From assembly GCA_041287245.1 (NCBI GenBank), contig JBEULP010000059.1, positions 1 to 31,500 on the forward strand: a stretch of DNA of 31,500 nt. Reading direction: 5' to 3'. This document shows, piece by piece, positions 6,807-23,532 of this stretch (its first letter is position 1; every line of letters begins with the position of its first letter). The DNA is from Infirmifilum sp. (GTDB lineage Archaea > Thermoproteota > Thermoprotei > Thermofilales > Thermofilaceae). Under the pieces are notes generated by a model. The model was not told the DNA's origin, searched no databases, and worked only from the letters and a program-made list of their open reading frames with translations. The translations under genes were made by a program, and so were the position numbers.

Positions 6807-6912
6807 CCTGCGAGGTATTAAGAGAGGTTATGAAACCAGATATATTAAAGAGGTTTGGGGCAATTTATATAAATAGAAAATGAGCAGTGTTTAGTTGAGG
6901 TGGAGGTTCAGG

Positions 6913-8004
6913 ATGGCTCGTGTAGCTGCTAAGGATCTAGTTAAGAGGTTTGGTAAGGTTGTCGCCGTTGACCATGTTACTTTCGAGGCTAGAGACGGAG
7001 AGTTTCTGGTGCTCCTCGGGCCTAGTGGCTGCGGCAAGACTACTACTCTTAGAATAATCGCCGGCCTTGAGACCCCTGACGAGGGAGAAATCTACATTGG
7101 CGAAAAGCTTGTCAACGATCTGCCCCCCAAGGACAGGGATATTGCGATGGTCTTCCAGAACTACGCCTTGTACCCCCACATGAAGGTCTACGATAACATT
7201 GCCTTTCCACTACGCGTTAGAAAGGTTCCCCGTGAGGAAATAGATCAGCGTGTTAAGGAGGTTGCAAAACTGCTGCGAATAGAGCAGCTCCTCGACAGGT
7301 ATCCACGCCAGCTAAGCGGCGGGCAACAGCAGAGGGTGGCTCTAGGCCGCGCGTTGGTTAGAAAGCCGCAGGTATTCCTGATGGACGAGCCTCTAAGCAA
7401 CCTAGACGCTAAGCTGAGGGTTTACATGAGGGCGGAGCTTAAGAGGCTCCAGCGGGAGCTCGGGATAACCACGATCTATGTGACTCACGACCAGGCTGAG
7501 GCGCTGACAATGGCTGACAAGGTCGCGGTTATGAACGAGGGTAGGATAATGCAGCTCGCCGAGCCTTCGGAACTATACTATAGGCCCGCTAACACCTTTG
7601 TAGCCGGCTTCATAGGCGCCCCCGCCATGAACTTCATCGACGCGTCACTGAATAGGAGCGACGGCGGATTTATCATAGACACGGGCGTTTTCAAGATCCC
7701 CCTGCCCGGCGACTTTACGCGGATCCTAGAGGAAAAGGGAAGCCCCTCCGAGGTAATCTTCGGGATTAGGCCGGAGCACATCGAGGTAAGCCGTGAGCCG
7801 CTACCGGATGGATTCGAAGTCGAGGTGTTCGTAACAGAGCCACTGGGGTCTGAGACGATAATCGACTTTAGACATGGAGATAGCCTTGTAAAAGCAAAGT
7901 ATCCAGGGTATTTCGATGCCAGGCACGGCGAGAAGATCTGGGTGCGTTTCAAGATCAACGAGGCACATATCTTCGACAAGAAGACGGGAAACACTATCAT
8001 CTGA
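6913..8004 (+). CDS. malK: Sugar ABC transporter ATP-binding protein (MalK/MsmX family)
   Basis: GPSGCGKT, MVFQNYALYPHM, LSGGQQQRVALGRA, DEPLSNLDAKLR, YVTHDQ, FVAGFIG, GIRPEH, C-terminal OB domain; ATG 6913 after GGAGG. Confidence 0.93.
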   Translation: MARVAAKDLVKRFGKVVAVDHVTFEARDGEFLVLLGPSGCGKTTTLRIIAGLETPDEGEIYIGEKLVNDLPPKDRDIAMVFQNYALYPHMKVYDNIAFPLRVRKVPREEIDQRVKEVAKLLRIEQLLDRYPRQLSGGQQQRVALGRALVRKPQVFLMDEPLSNLDAKLRVYMRAELKRLQRELGITTIYVTHDQAEALTMADKVAVMNEGRIMQLAEPSELYYRPANTFVAGFIGAPAMNFIDASLNRSDGGFIIDTGVFKIPLPGDFTRILEEKGSPSEVIFGIRPEHIEVSREPLPDGFEVEVFVTEPLGSETIIDFRHGDSLVKAKYPGYFDARHGEKIWVRFKINEAHIFDKKTGNTII

Positions 8005-8036
8005 AAAACTATTTTTACCCAGTTTTCTTTCTTGTT

Positions 8037-8672
8037 GTGGAGAATAGTGTGAAAAAAATCTCTGTTGTCAGCTTTGACCTCGACGGAACCCTTGTTACGC
8101 GTGAATACGTTGATTTCTTCTGGCTTGAGCTAGTCCCTAAATTATACGCCGAGAAACACGGGTTGGAAATAAAGGAGGCTAAGAGGAAAGTCTACGCCTA
8201 CTACGATGAGGTCGGCCCGGGGGATGTGCGATGGTACATGCCTAACTATTGGTTCAAGCGGTTTGGGATAGAAGAGTCTCTCAACTACGCGTTAACGGAG
8301 TCCGCGAAGATGATAAGCCCTTACAGTGACGCTGTCGAAGTGGTTGCCGAGTTAAGGAAGAAATATACACTCGTCTTGAGCACGGCCGCTGCTAGAGAGT
8401 TCGTGAACCTGGTTTTTCAAAGCGTACCTATCTATCGGGAATCATTCAAGCTGGTATTCTCGTCCTCATCGGACTTCGGCTTGCCTGGTAAGCCCCCAGA
8501 TTTTTACCGGAGGATACTTAAGGCACTGGGGAAAGAACCGAGCGAGGTAGTTCACGTGGGAGACGATGAGGAAAACGATTTAAAGAATGCCGTATCCGTG
8601 GGCTTGACAGCTGTGCTCGTATCAAGGAGTTTAAACCAAGACCTGAAAACCCTGCTTGATGGAATCTTATAG
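8037..8672 (+). CDS. HAD-superfamily hydrolase
   Basis: FDLDGTL motif I, LST motif II, GKP motif III, HVGDDxxND motif IV. Confidence 0.88.
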   Translation: MENSVKKISVVSFDLDGTLVTREYVDFFWLELVPKLYAEKHGLEIKEAKRKVYAYYDEVGPGDVRWYMPNYWFKRFGIEESLNYALTESAKMISPYSDAVEVVAELRKKYTLVLSTAAAREFVNLVFQSVPIYRESFKLVFSSSSDFGLPGKPPDFYRRILKALGKEPSEVVHVGDDEENDLKNAVSVGLTAVLVSRSLNQDLKTLLDGIL

Positions 8673-8710
8673 AACTTTACGTCACTATATTCTCTAAACT
8701 CTATCCTGTG

Positions 8711-8730
8711 TCCACCCATCTACGGGTGGA
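8711..8730. terminator. GC-rich hairpin between convergent genes, possible terminator
   Basis: TCCACCC-ATCTAC-GGGTGGA, 7-bp perfect stem, between convergent stops at 8672 and 8797. Confidence 0.35.
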
Positions 8731-8796
8731 TCCGCTGAGTTGTTAACCGCCCCTTGTTTTTTAAACTCAAAGGTAAAACAGCTCATTGAAATAACG

Positions 8797-9336
8797 TTAA
8801 AATGCTACGTAACTGTCACCGCCGACATGGAAGAGTGGTTTAGCCTTTTCGAGAATGTATGTATTGTTACCCCACACTTCTTGTAGTACAAGGGCTTTGA
8901 GAACCTGCCCTACCACCAGAACGTGATCCCCCGCTGGATACTGAGACCAAACCCTACACTCTATACACGCCAACGCGCCATCTATACAAGGAGCCGAGAC
9001 AGTTTCAGCTTGGATAAGCTTAATGCCTGCTCTCTGAACCTTGTCCTCCTCGCGTCCCGATACCGAGCCTGTATACTCAACCAGCTCAAGCATTTCCCGT
9101 GAGACAGGGTTTACGGTGAACTCTCTCGATTGCTGAAGAACCTCGTACGTGTATCGTCGAGGGGATAAGGCTAATGTTACCAGAGGAGGGGTAACGCTGG
9201 TAGGGGTGACCCAGCTAGCAGGCATCACGTTAACTCTTCCCGACTTAAGGGAGGTGACTATTAGGGTGACGAGCTTAGGGTGGAGAAGCCTGGTGTGCCA
9301 GTTTAGATTTACCTCAACATATCTATTTTTCGACAT
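8797..9336 (-). CDS. Flavin reductase-like protein (FMN-binding split barrel, DIM6/NTAB type)
   Basis: NVMPASW, PPLV, EFTVN, GSVSGRxxDK, IECRV, GDHVLVVGQV. Confidence 0.88.
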   Translation of the reverse strand: MSKNRYVEVNLNWHTRLLHPKLVTLIVTSLKSGRVNVMPASWVTPTSVTPPLVTLALSPRRYTYEVLQQSREFTVNPVSREMLELVEYTGSVSGREEDKVQRAGIKLIQAETVSAPCIDGALACIECRVWSQYPAGDHVLVVGQVLKALVLQEVWGNNTYILEKAKPLFHVGGDSYVAF

Positions 9337-9351
9337 GACAAAACAAGTGAG

Positions 9352-10494
9352 CTACGGGTTATTATTCTTTCCTATAGGGAAACCCAAGCCTTCTTTGCTC
9401 CAGGCGTCTTTGCGTCTCCTCTTAGTGTTGAAAAAGGTAACGGGTAGGACAAGGAATATAGACATTATACTTGAAAAACTGATGGGCTCGACTCCCAAGA
9501 GGGCGTTTGCAAGGCTGCTGAGAGGCGGGGCTACAGCATACCCGAGACCTATAAACGATTCGAAAAGGGAAGTGGCTCTTTCCACACCCTGGCCTCTATT
9601 GAAGACCTGTTCGAGGGCGGTTGCATAGACAATGCCCTGGCTAAAGCCTATGACGCTTGCTATCAAAAAAGTAAGGAAAGGGTCGCTGGTCCTCGTGAGC
9701 GTGATACCTGCCCCAAAGAGGAGAGATGCGAGAAGGATGTTTTTGCTAAAAGCTGGTAGCTTTTCAAAAAAGAAGAATGTAAGCGTCCTTGTAAATAGCA
9801 TCGAGAAGTTCACGAGCGATATATAGTCTTTGCTTAGCGAGTGGCTCTCAATAAAAATAGGGTAGAAGGTGAACACCCCACTCGAGGAGGCTGAGTAGGC
9901 TAGGCAATAGAACCAGGGAGTCAGCAGTAAAAGGAGGCGCTTCAAGCTGTTATTAGGCTGCATCGCCATACCCCTGCTCGTCTTAACCTGGTGTTTCATC
10001 CTTGGAGATAAAACACTTCCAGAGAAGGCTACTAGGGAGTAGAAAACGAAGAGAAGCTTAAGGTCGATTCGAAGGAGAGACGAGGTTATAAGTGCGCCAG
10101 CCAGTGAGCCTGAACTCCATGAGAAAGAGAAGAGAGACACGCTCGAACCCTTAGTCGACAATGAGCTCTCAACGGCGGGCCAGAAAACGCCGAAGCCGAG
10201 GAGGACTGTGCTTGCTGGGAGGAGGAGGCTTGTGAAATCAGCCGCCAGAGTGTGAGCCCAAAGTCCTGCAGCTATCAGGCAAAAGGATAAGAGGATCGTT
10301 TTAGCTGCCCCCAGTTTTCTGTAAAGGATGGCTGAAAGCAACGCCCCTACAATGTAAATTAGCGAGGCAAAACCAGTTATAAAGCCGATTTGGAGCTCCG
10401 TTAGCGACAAGTTATAAGCATAGATCACCAACGTCGGGGTAAACACTGCCTGGAGGAATGATGCTATGAAGGAAAGCACGTAGGCAACATCCAA
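9352..10494 (-). CDS. MFS transporter
   Basis: 380 aa with about 12 hydrophobic segments; motif-A-like G(A)LLSAILYRKLG in loop 2-3; C-terminal GLGYAVAPPLSS. Confidence 0.8.
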   Translation of the reverse strand: MDVAYVLSFIASFLQAVFTPTLVIYAYNLSLTELQIGFITGFASLIYIVGALLSAILYRKLGAAKTILLSFCLIAAGLWAHTLAADFTSLLLPASTVLLGFGVFWPAVESSLSTKGSSVSLFSFSWSSGSLAGALITSSLLRIDLKLLFVFYSLVAFSGSVLSPRMKHQVKTSRGMAMQPNNSLKRLLLLLTPWFYCLAYSASSSGVFTFYPIFIESHSLSKDYISLVNFSMLFTRTLTFFFFEKLPAFSKNILLASLLFGAGITLTRTSDPFLTFLIASVIGFSQGIVYATALEQVFNRGQGVERATSLFESFIGLGYAVAPPLSSLANALLGVEPISFSSIMSIFLVLPVTFFNTKRRRKDAWSKEGLGFPIGKNNNP

Positions 10495-10597: not shown

Positions 10598-11470
10598 TTA
10601 GAGGATAAGAGCTCTTATTGTCCCTTGGAGGAAGGGTACGAGAAGGGTGAGTATAAATCCGTGGATAAGGCTTACAATAGAAGCGTCCTCACCGTAGACA
10701 TACGAGTATACAGGAAGAGTATTATCCATTGTGGTAGCGCCCCCGAGGCTTATCATGGAAAGGAAAGGCTTGCGTAGCAAAGGCACGAGCACGAATGTTA
10801 GTTGCTCCCGGAGTACATTTACAAGGAAAGCTGTGAACCCCCACATCGGTCCATATGCCTGAGCCACAAAAGGTCCCGCGAAACTATACCATCCAAGGCC
10901 AAACATGATTTGGAGCGCGACGTCCGGTGGAAGGCCCAGTAGGAGAGATGACCCCAGACCCGTAATGAGCGCTGACAAGATGCTTAGCAGGACGGCCTTT
11001 AGGGCTATCCGCCCGCCGGTTTTAATGCTCTCGAAGTGTATGTCGCCCGAGACTGCTAAGCCGGTAACCGCGATCACGAGGTACACCTCTAGCAGAACAA
11101 CGTTCTGAAGGAACGTTTGGGGAACCAGGGGGTAGAGAAAACCCACGGTCCACCCGGCTATGATGGCTGCTAAGAGAGAGTAGCTGGGGCGAGCCTTAGG
11201 CTTCGACTTCAAGGTTTGGGAACTGTTTGAGTCAAAGAGGTATCCAAGCGTGACGAGGGAGAACACAAGTAAGCCGAGGATGGCTATCGTGGTGACTAGG
11301 CTTTTAAAGAGGATGCTTACGCCGCTCTCAGCAGCCCACAAAGATATTGTGAACACTAGGGCTATGACGACACTCCGGAAGACAATGTCAGGAACCTTGA
11401 CACCAAGTATCTTGCCGAGGATTATGGCGGCTGCGAAGGCTATCATTATACCAAGGGAGCCCAACTCCAT
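10598..11470 (-). CDS. LysO/DUF340-family membrane exporter
   Basis: GLGWYSFAG, NVLREQLT, GGATTMDNTLP, HGFILTLLVP are LysO-family signatures. Confidence 0.8.
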   Translation of the reverse strand: MELGSLGIMIAFAAAIILGKILGVKVPDIVFRSVVIALVFTISLWAAESGVSILFKSLVTTIAILGLLVFSLVTLGYLFDSNSSQTLKSKPKARPSYSLLAAIIAGWTVGFLYPLVPQTFLQNVVLLEVYLVIAVTGLAVSGDIHFESIKTGGRIALKAVLLSILSALITGLGSSLLLGLPPDVALQIMFGLGWYSFAGPFVAQAYGPMWGFTAFLVNVLREQLTFVLVPLLRKPFLSMISLGGATTMDNTLPVYSYVYGEDASIVSLIHGFILTLLVPFLQGTIRALIL

Positions 11471-11659
11471 ACTAAGCCTGGGTTTAAAACAGCCTATCTT
11501 TTAAAATCTTTAGAGCACGGTAATGTAAAAATTACGAAAAGCCCGTGTTGAACACCTACTGGTTTAACTGGGTGAGTAGCAAGGGTCACTCACGTCGTAT
11601 CTGCTACTTTTGGTCTTGAGCGGGATTTATTAAAAACCAGGAGATAAAATCAATGGGTG

Positions 11660-12415
11660 TTAGGGCCGTCTCGAGCTATTTGAGGGTTTTTCTTGAGAAG
11701 GGCTAAGGATCTCATATATGGCGCACAGGTTGTCTATTACGAAGACGTCTTCCCTGATGCGAACTTCAGGGTTGTACATCCCAGTTTTAACAACCAACGC
11801 GCGGAAGCCAGCCTCCGAGACCATATTTGCAAACTCTACTCTGTCGTCTATATGCGCTACTTCTGAGTAGGAGAGCCCATATTTAAAGGCCAGGCTAACT
11901 AGCGCCTCTACCCTGGAAGGGGAATCCTCTGGTACGACTATTATCTCGTCGAAAAACTTGGATAAGTTTCCGAGCTCGAGACGCCTCCTCTTCAAGCCTG
12001 GAACCCCGTCGCCCCCCGACACGGTAACGACGATTTTCCCGATATTCTTAAGCTCGCGTAGAAGCCGTATGGCGCACGGTAGTGTAGGAGAAGCTTTTAC
12101 CCGCGCCTCTGTTAGGAGATCGTATAGCTCGTCTCTCTTCGGGTTTAGCTTGAGACCTCGCTTCGCCGCTGCCTCCTCTAGCAGCTCGGGCATCTTAGAG
12201 TAGTCCATAGTGCCGTTCCTCTCACGGGCATACCATGCCTCCAAAGCGTCGTTTGAGACTGGTTGAAGCATGTTGGGAGGGACGCCTATATATAGGAGCA
12301 GTATCTCGATCACGTCGCGCATGTAGCTATAGCTGTCTATTATCGTTCCGTCGATATCGAAGGAGAATAGCTTTACACCATCCAGCAAAGACTTCAGGTC
12401 CTGCATAGCTACCAA
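11660..12415 (-). CDS. HAD-superfamily hydrolase
   Basis: FDIDGTIIDS motif I, VTVSG motif II, FFDEII, HIDDR motif IV. Confidence 0.8.
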   Translation of the reverse strand: MVAMQDLKSLLDGVKLFSFDIDGTIIDSYSYMRDVIEILLLYIGVPPNMLQPVSNDALEAWYARERNGTMDYSKMPELLEEAAAKRGLKLNPKRDELYDLLTEARVKASPTLPCAIRLLRELKNIGKIVVTVSGGDGVPGLKRRRLELGNLSKFFDEIIVVPEDSPSRVEALVSLAFKYGLSYSEVAHIDDRVEFANMVSEAGFRALVVKTGMYNPEVRIREDVFVIDNLCAIYEILSPSQEKPSNSSRRP

Positions 12416-12434
12416 GGCTCAAACAGCTCTTCGC

Positions 12435-13178
12435 TTAAAAAGATTTAGCACTTCCATTCAGACGCTGGGCCTTCCTCCTCGACTTATAAGTGTAGAACCA
12501 GGCTATAGCTAACACCAGGAGGACTGCTGCGGCGTAGTCCAGTACACGCGTATAGTTCTCGATTATGACCCAATTCTCGCCGAGAACCCAGCCGAGGTAA
12601 GCCAGCATGGCGTTCCAGGGTATTGACCCTACAAGGGTTAGCACGAGAAACTTCCAGACGTCCATTCGCGCCATACCCGCGGGGAGGGAGATCACAGTCC
12701 TAACCGCTGGGAGCATACGTCCAGTCAGAATAATCAACCCCCCGTACCGTTGAAAAAGTGCCTGCGCATTGAGAATATCTTCCTCCTCGATCAAGAAATA
12801 CTTCCCGTACTTCTCAACCGCTGAGAGACCTGGGCCCTCGCCCAGCCTGTATAACAGGTATGACCCGACGAGGTTGCCCAGGGTACCCGACGCCACGACT
12901 AGAAGCAAATCCATTTTTCCGCTCCAAGCTAGGAAGCCCGCGAAGGTCATCACTACCTCGCTTGGTATGGGGACCAGAGCGCTCTCCAACACCATGAGCA
13001 AGAATATCCCTGGATACCCCAGCTTCTCAATCGTCAACGTCGAGTACTTGACGGCTAGGCTTATCAGGGAGCTACCGCCATAAGTATGAAGAAAATATAT
13101 TCCTACAAGGAGGATTATCAGTCCAGCTGCAAGGATTAAAGGTGTTTTCATACGTGAGAACCCCTCATCAGCCTCCAA
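12435..13178 (-). CDS. DedA/VTT-family membrane protein
   Basis: LESALVPIPSEVVMTFAG, GNLVGS, GRMLPAVRTVISLPAG; start uncertain (13178 or ATG near 13151). Confidence 0.9.
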   Translation of the reverse strand: MEADEGFSRMKTPLILAAGLIILLVGIYFLHTYGGSSLISLAVKYSTLTIEKLGYPGIFLLMVLESALVPIPSEVVMTFAGFLAWSGKMDLLLVVASGTLGNLVGSYLLYRLGEGPGLSAVEKYGKYFLIEEEDILNAQALFQRYGGLIILTGRMLPAVRTVISLPAGMARMDVWKFLVLTLVGSIPWNAMLAYLGWVLGENWVIIENYTRVLDYAAAVLLVLAIAWFYTYKSRRKAQRLNGSAKSF

Positions 13179-13200
13179 GCACCATTATAGCATGTTGATA

Positions 13201-13614
13201 TCACTCGCTCGCGCCTCGAATCGACCTGACAGACTCCACTATCTCTTGGTAAAGCCTTGGGCTATACCCTACGAATCTGCGCGCCTCCTTACCCTTATAG
13301 AATAATACCAAAGTCGGAATGTTATAAACTTCAAAAGCTGCTGCAAGCGTAGGGTTGAGGTCGACATTTACCTTTGCGACTGCAAGCGTATCTCCATATT
13401 CTTCCCCAACTTTGGCGACCACAGGCTCTACCAGGCGGCAGGGGCCGCACCACTCAGCCCAGAAGTCGGCGAGAACCATGCTGCACTTCCTCAGAAGCTC
13501 GTTTAGCTTCTCCGGGTCTGCCTGCTTCTCGGCTGGACACCTCCCTTTGACGGGGGCTTGGACAAGGAGTTCGCGGAGCATCCTCCTCTTAATCAACTCT
13601 ATGTCACTACTCAT
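13201..13614 (-). CDS. trxA: Thioredoxin with archaeal N-terminal extension
   Basis: DFWAEWCGPC, KVNVD, IPT, RFVG. Confidence 0.9.
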   Translation of the reverse strand: MSSDIELIKRRMLRELLVQAPVKGRCPAEKQADPEKLNELLRKCSMVLADFWAEWCGPCRLVEPVVAKVGEEYGDTLAVAKVNVDLNPTLAAAFEVYNIPTLVLFYKGKEARRFVGYSPRLYQEIVESVRSIRGASE

Positions 13615-13826
13615 AGGGCTTCGTTATCTTCATCTCGATAAAAATTTTTTGTAAATTACTATGAGGGTTTCAGCTGCAATGAACCCTTATATAGGATCTA
13701 AGCGCCCGCTATGGGTTCAAGCAAAAGTTTCTTGAAAGCTGATACACAGGCTAGGCAGGGGCTGGCAAAGGCATATAAATTTTTATTAAAAAGATTATTT
13801 AAAGAACTTAATCGGAACGTTTTTGT

Positions 13827-15401
13827 ATGAATAGAAAAATTCTCGTGATAGACCAAGGGACCACGGGAACCCGCGTCGCACTTTACAACGAGGATGGAAC
13901 CCCCGTCCCAGGCGGATGGGCATACAGGGAACACGCCCAGATATATCCGAGGCCGGGATGGGTTGAACATAACCCTCTTGAAATCTGGGAGAAGACATTG
14001 CTGTGCATGAAAGAAGCGCTCCAACGCTCTAAAACGAGTCCGGAAGAGGTTTCAGCAATAGGGGTAACTAATCAGAGAGAAACCGTTGTGGTCTGGGACC
14101 CACGGAGCGGACAGCCGCTTTACAATGCTCTCGTCTGGCAGGATAGAAGAACCGCTCCGATCACAGACAACCTTCGGAAGACCCACTTCAGCTTAATATA
14201 CGAGAAGACAGGGCTTGTCCCCGACCCCTACTTCTCGGCGACGAAAATACAGTGGCTTTTGGAAAACGTGGAAGGACTACGTGAGAAAATGATTAAGGGA
14301 GAAGCAATCTTCGGAACCATCGACACCTGGATAATTTGGAATCTGACTAGGGGCTCCCGCGAGACCGCAACACCCGAGAAAGGCGGCGCACACATCACGG
14401 ATTATTCCAATGCCTCTAGAACAATGCTTTTTAACATACACAGGCTTCAATGGGACGAGGAGCTTCTCAGCCTGATGGGTAATATCGACGCGGACAGCCT
14501 CCCGATTCCCAGGCCTTCCAGCGACAAGGACGCATATGGCTATACGGGACCCGAAACCAGCGGTGTGTTCGAAGGGAAAAGCATTCCTGTGACAGGCGAT
14601 GCCGGGGACCAGCAAGCCGCACTTTTTGGCCAGGCAGGTTTTGAAGAAGGGGAGGTTAAGTGTACCTATGGAACTGGAAACTTTATTCTCCTGAACACGG
14701 GGGGTAGGGGGGTTAAGTCGAGGAACAACCTCCTCACAACTGTCTTCTACAGCCTTGAGGAGGGGAGGGCAACCTACGCGTTGGAGGGAAGCATATTCAT
14801 AACAGGGGCTGCAATCCAGTGGCTTCGCGACGGGCTGAAGCTTATCGAGGTTTCTCCCGAGGTAGACCCTCTAGCAGAAGCAACCGACGACACCGGAGGG
14901 CTGTACTTCGTCCCAGCCTTTACGGGTCTAGGCGCGCCTTACTGGGATCCCTACGCGAGGGGACTCATCATAGGGATTACACGGGGAACCACAAGGAGGC
15001 ACATAGCCAGGGCTGTTATTGAGAGCATCGCCTATCTAACCCGCGACGTCATCGAGGCTATGGAGAGGGACATTGGAGCAAGGATAAAGAGTCTAAAAGC
15101 GGATGGTGGCGCGGCTAAAAGCGATGTACTCTTACAGTTCCAAGCCGACATACTGGGGGTGGAGGTCTTGAGGCCTCTTATCCGGGAAACTACATCCCTG
15201 GGTGTAGCCTACCTGGCTGGACTAGCGGTAGGTTTATGGAGTAGCCTGGACGAGATAAAATCTCTGTGGAAAGCTGAAAAAGTGTTTAAGCCGCAGATGG
15301 AACTCGAGAGGCGTGAAAGGCTCTACAAGGGATGGAAGTCGGCGGTAAGCCGTGCACTCGGCTGGGCTAAGGAGATCCCCTGGGCCTATGGATACGAGTG
15401 A
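13827..15401 (+). CDS. glpK: Glycerol kinase
   Basis: [78 protein letters not shown]. Confidence 0.96.
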
Positions 15402-15453
15402 ACTAACATATCTTTTGGATTATTAAATATTTTTGTTACCTAAAACTCAAATA

Positions 15454-15474
15454 ATATGTAAAATTTTTACATAT
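15454..15474. promoter_or_regulatory. Perfect 21-bp palindrome, candidate operator of the glpA-sdhBCD-like unit
   Basis: ATATGTAAAA-T-TTTTACATAT ending 1 nt before the GTG start at 15476; TATA-like TATTAAATA at 15421-15429. Confidence 0.6.
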
Positions 15475-15475
15475 C

Positions 15476-16645
15476 GTGGCAGAAATAGGCAAGGATGTTC
15501 TTGTCATCGGCGGCGGAGTTACAGGCGCCGCGATAACCTATGACTTGGCCCTAAGAGGCTTCAAGGTCACCCTTGTCGAGAGGGGTAGTCTAGGCGCGGG
15601 GACAAGCGGGCGTACACACGGGCTGCTCCACAGCGGCTGCCGTTATATAGCGGACGTTGACGTGGCACGCGAGTGCTACACTGAAAACGTGACATTGCGG
15701 AGGATCGCGCCTTTCCTTTTCGAGAAGAACGGAGGGCTCTTCATAGCGGTAGGAGAGGATGATCTTAAGTACAAGGAGTTCTTCCTCAAGCAGTGTGAGA
15801 AAGCAGAGATACCTGTAAGGGAGCTCTCGAGGGAGGAGGCGTTGAAGCTCGAGCCTAATTTAAACCCCGAGATCAAAGCGGCTGTGGAGGTGCCAGACGG
15901 TACATTTGACCCCCTTAAAGTAATACTTACGTTTGCGGCATCAGCCAAAAAACATGGGGCACGCATAAGACCTTTCAACGAAGTCGTGGGCTTCAAGGTT
16001 GTAGACGGGAGAATAGCCAGCGTCACCGTTTTCGACAAGACCACCTTGAGGGAATACCAGCTCAGCCCCGACTACATTGTCAACGCGACCGGCGCGTGGG
16101 CTAACAAGGTGGCTAGGCTTGCGGGACTTACCGTCCCAGTGAAGCCCAGCCCGGGCGTGATGGTCGCCCTAGACGGCCGCATAGGCAACATGGTTTTCAA
16201 CAGGCTCAACAAGCCTGGTGACGGGGACATCATTGTGCACCACAGGGGGACAAGCGTTATCGGAACCACCTCTTGGGTCGTGGAGGACCCAGACGAGGTG
16301 AGAGCACCAAGGGAGCACGTCGAGCTTATGCTCAGGAGAGGTGCAGAGCTAGCCCCTGTCGTCTCGAGGCTTCGCGTGAAGGCGGTCTATGTTTCTTCAA
16401 GGCCTCTTGTTGGTGAAGGCGCGGCGAGCACTGGGCGGGAGGTGAGTAGAAGCTTCGCAATTATAGATCATTCGCGGGAAGGTGTTGAGAACTTCGCCAG
16501 TATAATTGGCGGGAAGTTTACGACTGCTAGGCTGATGGCTGAGAAGATGGGCGACTTTGTTGCAGAGAGACTGGGCGTGTCAGCCGAGTCCCGGACCTCT
16601 CAGCTTCCAATGGTTCCCTACTGGGTTTACTTCGAGGGGGTGTGA
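15476..16645 (+). CDS. glpA: FAD-dependent glycerol-3-phosphate dehydrogenase, GlpA type, lacking the C-terminal [2Fe-2S] domain
   Basis: VIGGGVTG, GTSGRTHGLLHSGCRY, PDGTFDP, VNATGAWA, PGDGDI, GTTS, RPLV, SRSF, GGKFTTARLMAE; directly after glpK. Confidence 0.9.
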   Translation: MAEIGKDVLVIGGGVTGAAITYDLALRGFKVTLVERGSLGAGTSGRTHGLLHSGCRYIADVDVARECYTENVTLRRIAPFLFEKNGGLFIAVGEDDLKYKEFFLKQCEKAEIPVRELSREEALKLEPNLNPEIKAAVEVPDGTFDPLKVILTFAASAKKHGARIRPFNEVVGFKVVDGRIASVTVFDKTTLREYQLSPDYIVNATGAWANKVARLAGLTVPVKPSPGVMVALDGRIGNMVFNRLNKPGDGDIIVHHRGTSVIGTTSWVVEDPDEVRAPREHVELMLRRGAELAPVVSRLRVKAVYVSSRPLVGEGAASTGREVSRSFAIIDHSREGVENFASIIGGKFTTARLMAEKMGDFVAERLGVSAESRTSQLPMVPYWVYFEGV

Positions 16646-16648
16646 AGA

Positions 16649-17317
16649 ATGAAGTATAGGCTTGTCATAAAACGGTTTAAGAATGGTAAAGCCTGGTTCG
16701 ACACCTTCGAGGTGGAGGCTGATCCCGAGGAAAGCGTTCTCGATGTTGTCGAGAGGGTGAGCCTTAAGAAGGATCGGAGCATAGTCTTCGAGCACGCGTG
16801 CCACCACGGTGTTTGCGGCGCCTGTGGAATGACCATAAACGGTGTCGAACGGCTTACATGTGTGACTAAGATCGGGGACGTGGCTAAAGGAGGGGTTGTG
16901 GTCGTAGAGCCTCTGAGGGGGTTCAAGGTGATAAGCGACCTCGCAGTGGACAAGTCGAGGATGTTTGGCAAGTACAGCTACGTGTCCCCAAGTACCCTGG
17001 AGAAGTTATTTATGAACCACGGTGCGGCCTCCATCGAGCGGGAAAAGCTTTTCGACTGCCTTGAATGTGGAATATGCTACTCCGCGTGCCCCATCGCGAA
17101 TACCTTCCCGTCATACCTAGGCCCCTCGCTCCTAGCCATGGTATCCAAGTCTGGAAACGCCCGTGTCCCCCGCATAGTAGACTCGAGAAGCGGTGTTTGG
17201 GGCTGTCACGGGGCTTTCGAGTGTAGCGTCAGGTGCCCCGCCGACTTCAAGCCGGGCGAGTTGATAATGAGGCTTCGCAGGAGGATGTTAAGTGGGGAAG
17301 TTAAGGTGGAGGGTTGA
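16649..17317 (+). CDS. SdhB/FrdB-like iron-sulfur subunit
   Basis: CHHGVCGAC...C ([2Fe-2S]), VEPL, VISDLAVD, CLECGICYSACP ([4Fe-4S]), YLGP, CHGAFECSVRCP ([3Fe-4S] pattern). Confidence 0.9.
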   Translation: MKYRLVIKRFKNGKAWFDTFEVEADPEESVLDVVERVSLKKDRSIVFEHACHHGVCGACGMTINGVERLTCVTKIGDVAKGGVVVVEPLRGFKVISDLAVDKSRMFGKYSYVSPSTLEKLFMNHGAASIEREKLFDCLECGICYSACPIANTFPSYLGPSLLAMVSKSGNARVPRIVDSRSGVWGCHGAFECSVRCPADFKPGELIMRLRRRMLSGEVKVEG

Positions 17318-17322
17318 TAGGT

Positions 17323-17703
17323 ATGGGTTTGAGGGAGGTTTTATCCACATGGTTTCGGGTAAAGGGTAGGAGTTTGGAGCACATCTCATTTGCGGCTAGG
17401 AGGCTCTCCGGGATAATAATGGCCCTTTACCTTCTCGGCCATCTAGTAGACATCTCGACCCTATTATTTGGGCGGGAAGTCTACTCACGTCTTCTAAGCA
17501 TGTTCGCCGGCCCCCTTGGGCTCCTCATTGACTCCTTGCTCTGGGCTGTCCTAGTCATCCACGGGACGCTTGGCATCTACTCGGTAATAGTTGAAGCAGG
17601 CTATCTGCTTGAGCACCGGCGCGCTCTTCTCGTGCTAGCCTGGGTTGCAGCCATAACAATGATAGTGGTTGGCGTATGGGTGATAAGCGGTGTACTCGGC
17701 TAG
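17323..17703 (+). CDS. SdhC-like cytochrome b membrane anchor
   Basis: RRLSG, three TM helices, His in YLLGHL and VIHGTLG; start ATG 17323 (or TTG 17314). Confidence 0.8.
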   Translation: MGLREVLSTWFRVKGRSLEHISFAARRLSGIIMALYLLGHLVDISTLLFGREVYSRLLSMFAGPLGLLIDSLLWAVLVIHGTLGIYSVIVEAGYLLEHRRALLVLAWVAAITMIVVGVWVISGVLG

Positions 17704-18037
17704 AAGAAGCCTAGGCTGGTTATTCCAAGTAGTGACGGCGGCCATACTCGTCCTAGCAGTTCTAAGCCACCTTATTCGGGTACACCTCTCAGGCTCCTAT
17801 CACGGGCTCCCAACATATGATGATGTTGCCTCATCCTTCAAAAATCCTCTGGTCGTAGCAGAAGAGCTAATACTGCTCGCCGCCGCCCTCTATCACGCCC
17901 TATACGGCCTCCACACAGTCCTCGTAGAGGCTAGCCTAGTCCGCGAAGAAAAATCAAAAACAATTTTTACAATACTTGGAGTAATCCTTTTCGCCTACGC
18001 CCTATTACTCACTCTCTACATAGCAATTAAACTCTGA
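17690..18037 (+). CDS. SdhD-like membrane anchor
   Basis: WLFQVVTA, LSHL, YHALYGL, three TM helices; overlaps previous gene. Confidence 0.8.
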   Translation: MYSARRSLGWLFQVVTAAILVLAVLSHLIRVHLSGSYHGLPTYDDVASSFKNPLVVAEELILLAAALYHALYGLHTVLVEASLVREEKSKTIFTILGVILFAYALLLTLYIAIKL

Positions 18038-18953: not shown

Positions 18954-19571
18954 ATGATGCCTATTGCAGAGGAGCTAGCAAAGGAGCTCGAGGGCAACCC
19001 TGAGGTAGCCAGGAGACTGGCGAGGAAACTTATAGAGAGCATAGAGCCTGAACTATCCATCTCAGTCCAGATAAGCAGGCTTGTCGAGCAGATGAGCAAG
19101 CTGGCTGAAGAACAGAAGAAGATATGGGAGGAGATAAGGGAGATGAGGAGAAGGCAGGATAGCTTTGAGTTCGAGCTGGTTAGGCTAAGGGAGTCAATTA
19201 TGTACGGCTTCTCCCAGGTCACTAAATTCACCGGAATAACTTTTGAGCAGTCCGTCAGGACGCTACTGACAGACCTGTTGAGAAAGTTCGGGGAAATCCC
19301 AGAGGGGGCTGAGCTGAGGAAGGCTTACGTGGATGGGGAGGAGGTAGACATCTTCCTGGAGGATCCCTTAATCGTCGGGGAGGTTACAGCCCATGCTGCG
19401 CCTGATAAAGTTGATAAACTCTTGAGGAAGGTTCGGAGGGCCGAGGAGATATACAAGAGGAGGGCTAGAGTCATCCTGGTTGCTGAGACTGCTGACTTGG
19501 AATTGTCTAGAGAGTTGAGGAAGAAGGCTAGGGAGGAGGGAGTTGAGTTGGTGATTGGGAAAGAGATCTAG
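18954..19571 (+). CDS. Coiled-coil protein with C-terminal degenerate PD-(D/E)XK-like domain
   Basis: Heptad-rich N-half (EEQKKIWEEIREM), G-x-x-FE helix, EVDI...IVGEVT, C-terminal ARExGV. Confidence 0.65.
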   Translation: MMPIAEELAKELEGNPEVARRLARKLIESIEPELSISVQISRLVEQMSKLAEEQKKIWEEIREMRRRQDSFEFELVRLRESIMYGFSQVTKFTGITFEQSVRTLLTDLLRKFGEIPEGAELRKAYVDGEEVDIFLEDPLIVGEVTAHAAPDKVDKLLRKVRRAEEIYKRRARVILVAETADLELSRELRKKAREEGVELVIGKEI

Positions 19572-19824: not shown

Positions 19825-19871
19825 AAAAATATATAGGAGTAGGCTTATCTAATTTTGTTAGGCGATACGAA
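19825..19871 (+). promoter_or_regulatory. feo promoter: BRE/TATA followed by two candidate DtxR-type boxes
   Basis: AAAAATATATA (19825-19835), then GTAGGCTTATCTAA (19839-19852) and TTAGGCGATACGAA (19858-19871), resembling TTAGG-N4-CCTAA; DtxR-family gene nearby. Confidence 0.55.
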
Positions 19872-20143
19872 TGAGTAAGACAGGTAGGGCTCTGCTCAGC
19901 CTTTCAGAGGCTAAGGTGGGGGGCTCGTATAAGATAGTTCGTGTTGAAGCATCAGGCCTGGTTAAGAGGAGAGTGATGGACTTAGGTCTCCTGCCGGGAG
20001 TTGTTGTCAGAGTTATGCGCAAGGCTCCCCTGGGCGACCCTCTTGAGGTTTCGGCAAAGGGGCATCCCATCTCCCTCCGTTTAGATGAGGCAAGGTTCAT
20101 ACTTGTAGAGGAGGTCGAGGGTGATTCCTCTGGCTTTCGCTAG
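19871..20143 (+). CDS. feoA: Ferrous iron transport protein A
   Basis: RRVMDLGLLPG, RKAPLGDPL, ISLRxxEAxxI. Confidence 0.9.
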   Translation: MSKTGRALLSLSEAKVGGSYKIVRVEASGLVKRRVMDLGLLPGVVVRVMRKAPLGDPLEVSAKGHPISLRLDEARFILVEEVEGDSSGFR

Positions 20144-20360
20144 GGATGGCAGCCTTGTCAGAGTCGTCATGATTAGAGGAGGAGGTTTGCGGAGAAGGCT
20201 TATTGAGCTAGGCATCTCCGAGGGAAAAAACCTCCGCGTCGTCAGATCATTAGGGCACGGCCCCGTAATTGTTGAGAGCGCCGAGAATAGCGGAAGGTTA
20301 GTCCTAGGTTTCGGGGTAGCTATGAAGATTATGGTGGAGGAGGTGCCGTATGAGCGTTAA
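20121..20360 (+). CDS. feoA: Ferrous iron transport protein A (second copy)
   Basis: RRRLIELGISEG, GPVIV, LGFGVAMKIMV. Confidence 0.88.
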   Translation: MIPLAFARDGSLVRVVMIRGGGLRRRLIELGISEGKNLRVVRSLGHGPVIVESAENSGRLVLGFGVAMKIMVEEVPYER

Positions 20361-22410
20361 GGAGAGACAGTTTAGGGTGGCGCTAGCTGGTATACCCAAC
20401 GTAGGAAAGTCACTCATATTCAACAAGCTCACTGGAGGCAAGGCTTGGGTTGGAAACTGGCCTGGAGTGACCGTAGAGAAAAAGGTTGGCAGGCTGGTTC
20501 TAGACGGCGTTGACGTAGAAGTGGTGGACCTTCCAGGTATATATGGGCTCACAGCCTACAGCGCCGACGAGGTCATAGCTAGGGACTTCATCATTGAGGA
20601 GAAGCCAGACGCTATAGTCTGCATCTTAAGCGCGATAAACCTGGAGAGGAGCCTTTACCTCGCCGTCTCCCTGCTCGAGCTTGGCGCTAACCTCGTTGTG
20701 GATCTGAACATGGTTGATCTGGCCCAGAAGGAGGGCTACAGGGTAGACCACAGGAGGCTTGAGTCTCTCCTTGGGGTACCGGTGATACCGACAGTTGCTA
20801 CGACGGGGCAGGGCATCGAGGAGCTGAGGGACGCCATTAGGAGGGCCCTTCATGAGCGTGTTGAGCGTGCGCGTGTGGTCGACTACGGCAAGGACGTGGA
20901 GGAGGCAATAGCTACCTTGGAGGGGGTGATCCGCTCAGAAGCCCCAGTGCTCGTGGAAAAATACCCCCCGAGGTGGCTTTCAATTAAGCTGTTAGAAGGA
21001 GATGCCGTCATCCTCGAGAGGGTCTCCAAGGTTCAAAACGGGGAGAAAGTAATAAGCGCCGCTTCGAAGCTTAAGAGCGAGCTTGAAGCGAAACTGGGGG
21101 ACCTGGAGACCTACATGGTCGACAGGAGGTATAAAAAGGTGCTAGAACTTTCCCAGGCAGTTGTAGTGAGAGAGTCTTCCATCGGGGTTAGCGCGACGGA
21201 CATTTTAGACTCTATCTTGACCCACAAGGCCCTGGGCATACCCTTCGCCCTCTCCACGCTATACCTCCTCTTCAGATTCGCGTTTGAGGTTTCAACACCT
21301 TTCGCGGATCTTTTAGATATTGCTATCAACCGCTTGCTTCATGACTGGGTTCTAGGCCTTCAAGGGCTCCCCGAGTGGGCGGCGTCGCTCCTGGCAGACG
21401 GGATAATCGCTGGTGTGGGCGCTGTGATGGTGTTCTTGCCCGTGATAGCCCTTTTCTTCCTGGGCTTCGCGATACTCGAGGACTCCGGCTACATGGCTAG
21501 GGTGGCGTTCCTGGTCGACAAGATATTCAACAGGTTCAACCTGCCCGGAAAATCAATCGTCCCTTTGATCATAGGCTTCGGGTGCAATGTCCCTGCGGTG
21601 ATGGCGGCTAGGACCATAGAGGACGAGAATGACAGGAAGGTTACAGCGCTGATCGCACCTCTATCTTCGTGTAGCGCCAGACTGCCGGTCTACCTGGTCA
21701 TAGGCGGCGCCATACTTGGCGCTTCAGCCGGCTTCGCCGTGCTGAGCATGTACATCCTAGGGATACTCTTCGCGCTTCTCATGGGCTGGTTCTTCAGGAG
21801 GTTCTTCTTCAAGGGGGTTAGCGCTGGCTTCATAATGGAGCTCCCGCCTTACCTCATGCCGAGGCTTGACAACGTGGCGATGAAAACGTGGGAGAGAACT
21901 AAGAGGTTTCTGTTCAAGGCTGGTTCTATAATCCTCCTCGTCATGATCCTAGTATGGCTTCTATCCGTCACCGGCCCCAAGGGATTTCTAGGCAGCAACG
22001 CCTTGGGGGACCCGGAGCTCCTCTCGAGAAGCTGGGTCGCAGTCCTAGGCAGATGGCTATCAGAGGCAGTCTTCTTCCCAATGGGGTGGGACTGGAGGCT
22101 CTCGGCTGCACTGTTCTTCGGCTTCCTAGCGAAAGAGGTCGTAGTGGGTACGCTGGGAGTACTTATGGGTGTGGAGGGCGTAGAGGGGTTGCAGCGAGCT
22201 TTAGCTGAAAGCCATATACTTACTCCGCTGACAGCCTACGCGTACATGGCTTTTGTGTTGCTATACGTGCCGTGCGCAGCCACGCTAGCCACGATAAGGA
22301 ACGAGCTGGGGCTGAAGTATGCTATTTTCGCCTTGGCGTACATGCTCCTGCTAGCTTACATAGTAGCACTGGGCATAGTGGTTATAGGTTCCCTAGTCGG
22401 GCTAACATAG
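20350..22410 (+). CDS. feoB: Ferrous iron transporter B
   Basis: GIPNVGKS, VGNWPGVTVE, DLPG, NMVD, LEDSGYMAR, GFGCNVPA, SCSARLP, FIMELPPY, AKEVVV, LYVPCAAT. Confidence 0.97.
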   Translation: MSVKERQFRVALAGIPNVGKSLIFNKLTGGKAWVGNWPGVTVEKKVGRLVLDGVDVEVVDLPGIYGLTAYSADEVIARDFIIEEKPDAIVCILSAINLERSLYLAVSLLELGANLVVDLNMVDLAQKEGYRVDHRRLESLLGVPVIPTVATTGQGIEELRDAIRRALHERVERARVVDYGKDVEEAIATLEGVIRSEAPVLVEKYPPRWLSIKLLEGDAVILERVSKVQNGEKVISAASKLKSELEAKLGDLETYMVDRRYKKVLELSQAVVVRESSIGVSATDILDSILTHKALGIPFALSTLYLLFRFAFEVSTPFADLLDIAINRLLHDWVLGLQGLPEWAASLLADGIIAGVGAVMVFLPVIALFFLGFAILEDSGYMARVAFLVDKIFNRFNLPGKSIVPLIIGFGCNVPAVMAARTIEDENDRKVTALIAPLSSCSARLPVYLVIGGAILGASAGFAVLSMYILGILFALLMGWFFRRFFFKGVSAGFIMELPPYLMPRLDNVAMKTWERTKRFLFKAGSIILLVMILVWLLSVTGPKGFLGSNALGDPELLSRSWVAVLGRWLSEAVFFPMGWDWRLSAALFFGFLAKEVVVGTLGVLMGVEGVEGLQRALAESHILTPLTAYAYMAFVLLYVPCAATLATIRNELGLKYAIFALAYMLLLAYIVALGIVVIGSLVGLT

Positions 22411-22423
22411 AGGGGTGTTCTCC

Positions 22424-22903
22424 ATGGGTAAGTCGTACTTCACCTTTTTGGTTTGGTTTGGCTTCATACTGGGGCTACCGTACCTGGCAGCTGGTGGCAT
22501 GGCCCTCTACAATTGGTACCTCACAGTGACGGGAGAGGAGCCGCTGCTCTCCAACTTCATCCCCTCAGACCTGGGGGTGTCTATGGTATTCATCACTACC
22601 GGCGCCCTGCTCGTGGCGCCGCTATACTACACAAGATTGAAACCCGAACACACAAAGGCTTTATCAGCCCTACTGCTCGGCTCAGGCCTGTCGGTAGTCG
22701 CTATGGTCATCCAACTGCTCGTCGCCGCGGCCTCCTGGCTAGACGGCCTAATCGTGGGAGAGCCCCTGAGTCCTGAGAACCTGTATGCGATAATTACGAG
22801 GAGCGATGCACTGCTGGGATGCTTCGCCCTGCCACTCTTCTACGCGACCCTAAGAATCTTGCAGCACGGCGGGGCCTCCCCGGGAAACGGCCAGCCCCGC
22901 TAG
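22424..22903 (+). CDS. Hypothetical membrane protein (about 4 TM), co-oriented after feoB
   Basis: Four hydrophobic segments; starts 13 nt after feoB stop, with GAGGGGTG upstream (GTG 22415 or ATG 22424). Confidence 0.7.
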   Translation: MGKSYFTFLVWFGFILGLPYLAAGGMALYNWYLTVTGEEPLLSNFIPSDLGVSMVFITTGALLVAPLYYTRLKPEHTKALSALLLGSGLSVVAMVIQLLVAAASWLDGLIVGEPLSPENLYAIITRSDALLGCFALPLFYATLRILQHGGASPGNGQPR

Positions 22904-23106
22904 GCTTGTCCCTATCCGCACCATGTCCAAAAATACTCGTCTTTTTCATTTGCTACGCCTAGGCCGGAGAACCATGAAGAACCTTTTACCATGCGCGGCG
23001 GCTTCTGTGTCTGCGCCTACGAGAGCTTGAGTAGAGGCCGATGGGAAGAAAGCGGGACTTTGTGATATTTTTATTAAACTCACCGGCATTTCATGGGTGA
23101 AGGGCG

Positions 23107-23532
23107 ATGAGCCTAAGCATTAGAGTTGAGGACTACCTGAGGATAATTTACGAGATTGAGCAGGAGAAGGGGTACGCCCGGGTAAAGGATATTGCCAATA
23201 GGCTCGGCGTTAAAAGGTCATCTGTGGTTGAGATGATGAAAAAGCTGAGTTCTGAGGGATATATCGTATATAATCTGCGCGAGCCAGTCCGGCTAACCCC
23301 CTCCGGGAGAGAAATTGCCGGGCTTGTCAAAAAGAGACAGGAGACATTCCAGAAATTCCTTGAAGCCCTGTTGATTCCTAGAGAGATAGCATCGAGGGAT
23401 TCTCACATACTTGAGCATCAACTGCACGAAGAGACGGTCAAGAGGATATTAGAGTTTGTTGAATTTGTAACTGAGACTGAAGCTGGAGAGAAGTTATTAG
23501 AGGAGTTTAAAAAATACACCAGTAAGAAATAA
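23107..23532 (+). CDS. DtxR/MntR-family metal-dependent transcriptional repressor
   Basis: EDYLRIIY, ARVKDIAxRLGVKxSSV, LTPSG, SHILEH; TATA-like TTTTATTAAA near 23069. Confidence 0.92.
   Translation: MSLSIRVEDYLRIIYEIEQEKGYARVKDIANRLGVKRSSVVEMMKKLSSEGYIVYNLREPVRLTPSGREIAGLVKKRQETFQKFLEALLIPREIASRDSHILEHQLHEETVKRILEFVEFVTETEAGEKLLEEFKKYTSKK

Follow-up and report, generated by a model that had tools for sequence, protein, structure and literature searches.

The described system closest to the locus considered here is the glycerol-3-phosphate dehydrogenase (G3PDH) type that Schmerling et al. (2025, Commun Biol 8:539; PMC11962113) named "GlpA-SdhBCD (T. pendens)" by its gene order, noting the missing C-terminus of GlpA; in the accessible text of that study the assignment rests on synteny, a tree and a model of the GlpA monomer. 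The term "GlpA-SdhBCD" appears nowhere in the searched literature beyond this publication and its preprint, and our literature search found no biochemical study of the system. The original T. pendens genome paper reportedly discusses the cluster as well, so that a mention before 2024 is possible. Here we analyse a comparable locus in a 31,500-nucleotide stretch (hereafter the window) of the archaeon Infirmifilum sp., family Thermofilaceae (assembly GCA_041287245.1, contig JBEULP010000059.1, our contig C83), from a 1.81-Mb assembly of 119 contigs with a completeness of 99.99% and a contamination of 5.05%. Five genes on the forward strand, in the order glpK-glpA-sdhB-sdhC-sdhD, occupy positions 13827-18037. 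A first-pass annotation had pointed to an earlier notice of such an arrangement in Thermofilum, and this is indeed in print for T. pendens (PMC11962113). Judging from sequence comparison, glpA-sdhB-sdhC-sdhD probably encode one membrane-bound glycerol 3-phosphate (G3P):quinone oxidoreductase, in which GlpA replaces SdhA and the base is that of a two-haem complex II. Comparative evidence supports this reading well, and for a close relative the arrangement is already in print, as a gene-order prediction.

Linkage of GlpA and SdhB

Loci were pooled from 41 genomes of the order, 301 genomes of the phylum (30 loci), a GTDB scan (13 loci) and a metagenome scan from which the best 80 of 584 confirmed loci, drawn from 5 of 64 parts, were taken. 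From the 135 pooled loci we removed nine duplicates (leaving 126), 16 loci truncated at the end of a contig and 24 whose GlpA is tailed. In each of the 86 evaluable loci that remained, the tail-less (or fused) GlpA is complete and is followed by 250 nt or more of sequence. SdhB comes next after the tail-less GlpA in 85 of these 86 loci, which are kin and not independent trials, so that such counts overstate independence. In the sole exception (L094), glpA is followed by an IS630-type transposase, and as a control none of the 24 tailed-GlpA loci shows an SdhB within 1.0-1.4 kb downstream. The adjacency seen in the window is thus conserved, and tail-less GlpA and the linked type of SdhB co-occur in the same 11 of the 41 order genomes.

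In the SdhB tree the 74 linked SdhBs make up one side of a branch with 100/99 support against 35 control proteins of the SdhB family (the 30 best archaeal PF13085 loci and five from actinobacteria), a split that points to a single origin of the linked SdhBs, as far as these controls reach. Furthermore, four of the five relatives' genomes tested (carriers of Actinomycetota type) hold a second, separate SdhB elsewhere, which argues that the linked SdhB is dedicated. The window SdhB is 75% identical to that of T. (Infirmifilum) uzonense (P0123) and 64% identical to that of T. pendens (P0128), and the window GlpA, which shares 81% identity with its counterpart in Infirmifilum lucidum and 79% with one from a Thermofilum metagenome-assembled genome (MAG), groups with ten Thermofilaceae-like rows in the GlpA tree (SH-like approximate likelihood ratio test, 99). 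On the direction of transfer between bacteria and archaea the two trees differ: in that of SdhB the archaeal rows sit within rows from metagenomes, and in that of GlpA they stand beside all others. Bacterial carriers include Solirubrobacterales and other Actinomycetota MAGs and a Bacillota MAG, and in the sequence collections searched the GlpA-SdhB system is mainly bacterial. Mirror distances of GlpA and SdhB correlate with rho 0.64-0.69, a value expected from shared descent that is no proof of contact.

Natural fusions join the two proteins. At one locus (L073) GlpA and SdhB form a single 701-aa chain, and both domains lie on one chain in 32 of the best 120 matches to it, 31 of which (one partial) belong to a group in which the names Cellulomonas, Pengzhenrongella, Actinotalea and Isoptericola occur and one of which comes from a Bacillota MAG. 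The fusions belong to two lineages, which stay apart in the tree, and a single fusion event is rejected (approximately unbiased test, p-AU 0.005) in a tree of eight fused rows, with one row left out and one (P0305) on a long branch. The model of a natural 664-aa fusion folds with a predicted local distance difference test (pLDDT) score of 91.4 and a predicted TM-score (pTM) of 0.91 and with a disordered linker; undocked domains would be expected to give a pTM near 0.6. No solved chain among the matches listed spans both the GlpA and the SdhB domain, the best having a TM-score of 0.51.

It could be argued that sdhB, sdhC and sdhD are the remnant of a succinate dehydrogenase whose SdhA is encoded elsewhere or lost, and that they stand beside glpA by chance; with an assembly in 119 contigs, a gene may have been missed. 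A profile search for the SdhA C-terminal domain, positive in 11 of 14 controls, gave no match in the window's genome and none in 23 genomes of the family, of which 17 are at least 90% complete and several are in one or two contigs. Our own SdhA profile, built from 16 control loci, found nothing at E<=10 in the window's genome, where matches to FAD_binding_2 (PF00890) reach no further than its first 30-52 positions out of 414 (the Rossmann start). The same genome holds exactly one SdhB, no GlpB over the cut-off and no CCG (GlpC-type) domain. As such, the lack of sdhA/frdA, glpB and glpC, first remarked from the window, holds genome-wide, and the separate sdhA that might have partnered these subunits is found neither there nor in the 23 family genomes. 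Set beside the linkage, the separate SdhB clade and the fusions, these results largely refute the remnant reading, to which we give almost no credence; the linkage, the absent sdhA and the fusions equally lend support to the modular swap, yielding a complex II-like G3P:quinone oxidoreductase, that had been proposed for this locus.

The genes that follow SdhB differ among the 85 loci. Both sdhC and sdhD come next in 54, four have one anchor seen, five carry an extended SdhB, 12 show no anchor gene within 1.6-3.3 kb and nine are cut in or just after sdhB. In the one that remains (L019; G011:C22:16316-18914), sdhC-sdhD is inverted, so that it converges on glpA-sdhB and runs over the end of that pair, and glpK lies on another contig. 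The extension of SdhB (L029, L030, L032, L046 and L069) amounts to about 290 residues, with a CCG domain confirmed in all four proteins scanned; this SdhB-CCG variant (GlpC/TfrB-like), in which sdhC and sdhD are not adjacent, is nested among actinobacterial rows of the SdhCD type. An anchor-less glpA-sdhB clade of 11 rows has 100/100 support (L083, L095, L097-L099, L102, L103, L106, L108, L110 and L113; and L086). The fixed unit would then be GlpA with SdhB, the membrane end differing between lineages.

Cofactor sites and a candidate electron path

The window GlpA scores 438 bits against TIGR03377, below the cut-off of 553, and extends two residues past the end of the match, that is, it has almost no C-terminal extension. 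A Pfam scan did not find the BFD [2Fe-2S] domain (PF04324) in it, which the same domain's positive control (L021) contains, and the protein holds only three cysteines (55, 67 and 107); the first-pass description of a 389-aa GlpA devoid of the BFD-like tail is borne out. Its model (pLDDT 92.8, pTM 0.91) has GlpD and GlpO as best structural matches, and residues R56, Y57, R309, R325 and K347, which we take to bind the substrate, do not vary among 74 linked relatives and have identical counterparts in alignments with solved G3P dehydrogenases and oxidases.

All three cluster motifs attributed to SdhB are present, with 11 of 11 cysteines correctly spaced for [2Fe-2S], [4Fe-4S] and [3Fe-4S]; these cysteines and H53 are invariant in 74 of 74 linked rows. 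At the [2Fe-2S] site, which in the window reads CHHGVCGAC, an arginine directly after the first cysteine occurs in none of the 74 linked SdhBs versus 31 of 35 controls, and a histidine two places after it in 74 of 74 versus 2 of 35. C-x-His was considered as a sole diagnostic motif and rejected, because actinobacterial Sdh2 carries it too.

In the membrane subunits, SdhC R30, H43 and H83 and SdhD H27, H32 and H69 are invariant in 54 of 54 loci, and SdhD E59 is found in 53 of 54. SdhC H43/H83 align with 6lum_C H47/H87 and SdhD H27/H69 with 6lum_D H65/H107, which according to the accessible text of PMC7447783 are the four axial ligands of both haems in Mycobacterium smegmatis Sdh2. Because these residues fall on the four Sdh2 ligands, the window anchor is likely of the two-haem type, with haem binding predicted. 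SdhD E59 aligns to position 97 of 6lum_D, adjoining distal quinone site residues named in that paper. Of the complex II features tested, we find a three-motif iron-sulfur subunit and two three-helix anchors with the four haem-ligand histidines.

In the path we propose, glycerol kinase (assigned to its family from profiles) would make G3P, which GlpA would oxidise to dihydroxyacetone phosphate on FAD. The tail-less GlpA would pass electrons to the [2Fe-2S] cluster of SdhB, which would thereby replace both GlpB and the lost BFD cluster, and the electrons would move onward via [4Fe-4S] and [3Fe-4S] to two b haems in SdhC/SdhD, which would reduce a menaquinone-type carrier. Textbook potentials are about -190 mV for the oxidation of G3P and about -75 mV for a menaquinone-type carrier. 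A membrane reductase could reoxidise the quinol, for instance the enzyme resembling polysulfide/thiosulfate reductases that contig C104 encodes; a PhsA-like molybdoenzyme and its iron-sulfur subunit are present in the genome. Haem and the quinone head group would presumably be obtained by salvage, since the genome has no match to MqnA/MqnD or to ALAD (haem synthesis). A MenA-like prenyltransferase is encoded in convergent orientation with a haem o synthase that scores over its cut-off (contig C86, 35600-37400; L200), and the two might serve together in the salvage of haem and quinone in this anaerobe.

Several observations weigh against this reading, beginning with the kinship of the surveyed loci and the missing MqnA/MqnD and ALAD matches just given. 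The fusion model comes from a bacterial relative and was made without a control, and the histidine at the [2Fe-2S] site occurs in actinobacterial Sdh2 SdhB also and hence is not diagnostic alone. Our literature search yielded no activity, co-purification or expression data. The 12 loci of the 85 that carry GlpA-SdhB with no anchor nearby count here too, as does the finding, in the accessible text of PMC11962113, that related S. acidocaldarius G3PDHs reduce quinone without a partner. Both would fit a GlpA that reduces quinone directly, as in Sulfolobus, with SdhB, SdhC and SdhD mainly a tether or a loose partner and not an electron wire; the S. acidocaldarius enzymes are active with ubiquinone-1 without CoxG, which merely anchors them (PMC11962113). 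However, 11 iron-sulfur cysteines and four haem histidines, all invariant, would be needless for a mere tether, and natural fusions join GlpA to SdhB, and we regard direct quinone reduction as quite improbable.

Points of physiology bear on what the enzyme is for. T. (Infirmifilum) uzonense and T. adornatum do not grow on glycerol, according to the accessible parts of PMC4673724 and PMC6965361, respectively; the window's genome has no match to a glycerol facilitator (GlpF); and glpK is near in only 27 of the 53 loci that have 2.5 kb upstream. These facts, which also tell against the proposal, would suit an enzyme of the same four-subunit architecture whose role is other than growth on glycerol, one whose task is the recycling of G3P that stems from scavenged lipids or the oxidation of some related polyol phosphate, as would the sub-threshold TIGR03377 score and the two further DAO+BFD flavoprotein clusters in the genome. 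However, the active-site residues common to solved G3P dehydrogenases and oxidases are invariant and the best folds are GlpD and GlpO; glpK stands directly upstream in the window and close to glpA in seven of seven same-genus genomes; and recycling of G3P would agree with the chemistry of a G3P:quinone oxidoreductase in any case. We consider such a different role unlikely. Still, the lack of growth in these two species speaks against a simple growth role, and the enzyme may serve to recycle G3P or depend on an acceptor being supplied.

The first of the further clusters (contig C6, about 6300-9950; L208:2802-6444) encodes a 502-aa DAO+BFD flavoprotein, a 421-aa NADH-oxidase-like protein and a DUF1667 protein, and resembles the Thermococcus GlpTk-NOX-MOX type; the FGGY kinase that precedes it consists of two fragments of about 80 aa only, an N- and a C-terminal piece. 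In the other (contig C86, about 11000-16100; L209:2493-7640), a 467-aa DAO+BFD flavoprotein is accompanied by an unassigned 318-aa open reading frame (ORF), a kinase of the FGGY family and an FAD-linked oxidase.

A broader view is offered tentatively, and we would not expect it to hold in full. In it, GlpA-SdhB would be an ancient redox module of single origin, widespread in uncultured bacteria and routinely mislabelled as succinate dehydrogenase; it would prove that a flavoprotein of unrelated fold can be fitted to the wire of complex II, and it would serve several outputs (two-haem SdhCD, fused CCG, no adjacent anchor). In Thermofilaceae, the retained distal haem and the conserved SdhD H32/E59 would let electrons cross the membrane, proton-motive force driving the reduction of a low-potential quinone for sulfur respiration.

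Gene layout and surroundings

The ORF listing and the profile matches place all five genes as first annotated (Table 1). The glpK-glpA spacer is AT-rich and measures 74 nt, and the genes flanking the run (thioredoxin and TrmO-like) lie on the opposite strand. Tight coupling of the last four genes had been described as a 3-nt gap followed by overlaps; the gap between glpA and sdhB stands, as does a 14-nt overlap of sdhC with sdhD, but the sdhB-sdhC junction is either a 4-nt overlap (TTG 17314) or a 5-nt gap (ATG 17323). The latter is probably the true start, since a GGAGGG element lies 9 nt upstream of it and relatives align from that methionine, so the overlap at this junction probably does not hold. 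A sigma-70 promoter and terminator scan returned chance-level counts, from a model that does not fit an archaeon.

Table 1. Genes of the glpK-sdhD run in the window
Gene	Product	Position	Strand	Profile match
glpK	Glycerol kinase, 524 aa	13827..15401	+	TIGR01311, 662.8 bits (cut-off 590); NF000756, 704.8 bits (over cut-off)
glpA	Tail-less GlpA-type FAD glycerol-3-phosphate dehydrogenase (predicted), 389 aa, DAAO fold only	15476..16645	+	TIGR03377, positions 1-377 of 530
sdhB	SdhB-type iron-sulfur subunit, 222 aa, three cluster motifs	16649..17317	+	TIGR00384, 139 bits (cut-off 88)
sdhC	SdhC-type membrane subunit, three hydrophobic helices	17314..17703 (probable start ATG 17323)	+	PF01127
sdhD	SdhD-type membrane subunit, 115 aa, three hydrophobic helices	17690..18037	+	PF01127

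In one same-genus genome (L013:447-1161), two small opposite-strand genes, which by their motifs we presume to be a nucleotidyltransferase/HEPN-like pair, stand between glpK and glpA. Elsewhere in the window, an iron uptake run (FeoA/FeoA/FeoB-like, read from translations) with a DtxR-type repressor (PF01325) lies close downstream at 19871-23532. A 205-aa coiled-coil protein without a Pfam match (18954-19571) is PD-(D/E)XK-like by eye in its C-terminal part, and a 715-aa protein (4659-6806), in which Pfam recognises nothing but part of a transaldolase domain (221-388), precedes a MalK-type ABC ATPase.

Comparison with known systems

If the proposal is true, G3P oxidation would gain a fourth membrane design, and the catalytic head of complex II would have been exchanged in nature for one of a different fold, a clean test of the modularity of respiratory wires. 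It would also mean that sdhB, sdhC and sdhD annotations in Thermofilaceae and many bacteria are wrongly counted as succinate dehydrogenase or as a step of the tricarboxylic acid cycle. The concept is in print as a one-line prediction, and the gain would come from testing it, for which the cultured fusion carriers (Cellulomonas sp. P24 and SG140, Pengzhenrongella, Actinotalea and Isoptericola) are easier than a hyperthermophile.

The window carries what defines the GlpA-SdhBCD type, namely a GlpA of the Thermofilum subcluster and glpA followed by sdhB, sdhC and sdhD. It shares with T. pendens (Tpen_1127) the lineage, the gene order, the missing C-terminus and the motif CHHGVCGAC, and in the accessible material there is no difference in kind; the accessible text of PMC11962113 makes no mention of bacterial members, fusions, two-haem ligands or the absence of sdhA. 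The nearest relatives shown biochemically are the GlpA-CoxG enzymes of S. acidocaldarius (Saci_2032/Saci_1118), which, from the accessible description, have a GlpA-like head without the BFD cysteines and adjoin glpK. They possess a helical tail of about 50 aa and a CoxG anchor, without an iron-sulfur or haem partner, whereas the window GlpA is tail-less and followed by sdhB; tailed GlpA enzymes of this Sulfolobales type form a separate branch in the GlpA tree. With the E. coli-type GlpABC (TIGR03377/8/9), the window system shares the GlpA catalytic domain and the proposed flow from G3P to menaquinone, but it has no BFD tail, GlpB or GlpC/CCG and lies outside GlpABC. M. smegmatis Sdh2 (6lum; PMC7447783, accessible text) is the best solved match for SdhB, SdhC and SdhD, and its four haem ligands align with theirs, whereas the window flavoprotein is a GlpA of the DAAO fold and not an SdhA. 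Excluded from complex II for want of SdhA, the window system would, as these comparisons have it, work like a hybrid of GlpABC and complex II.

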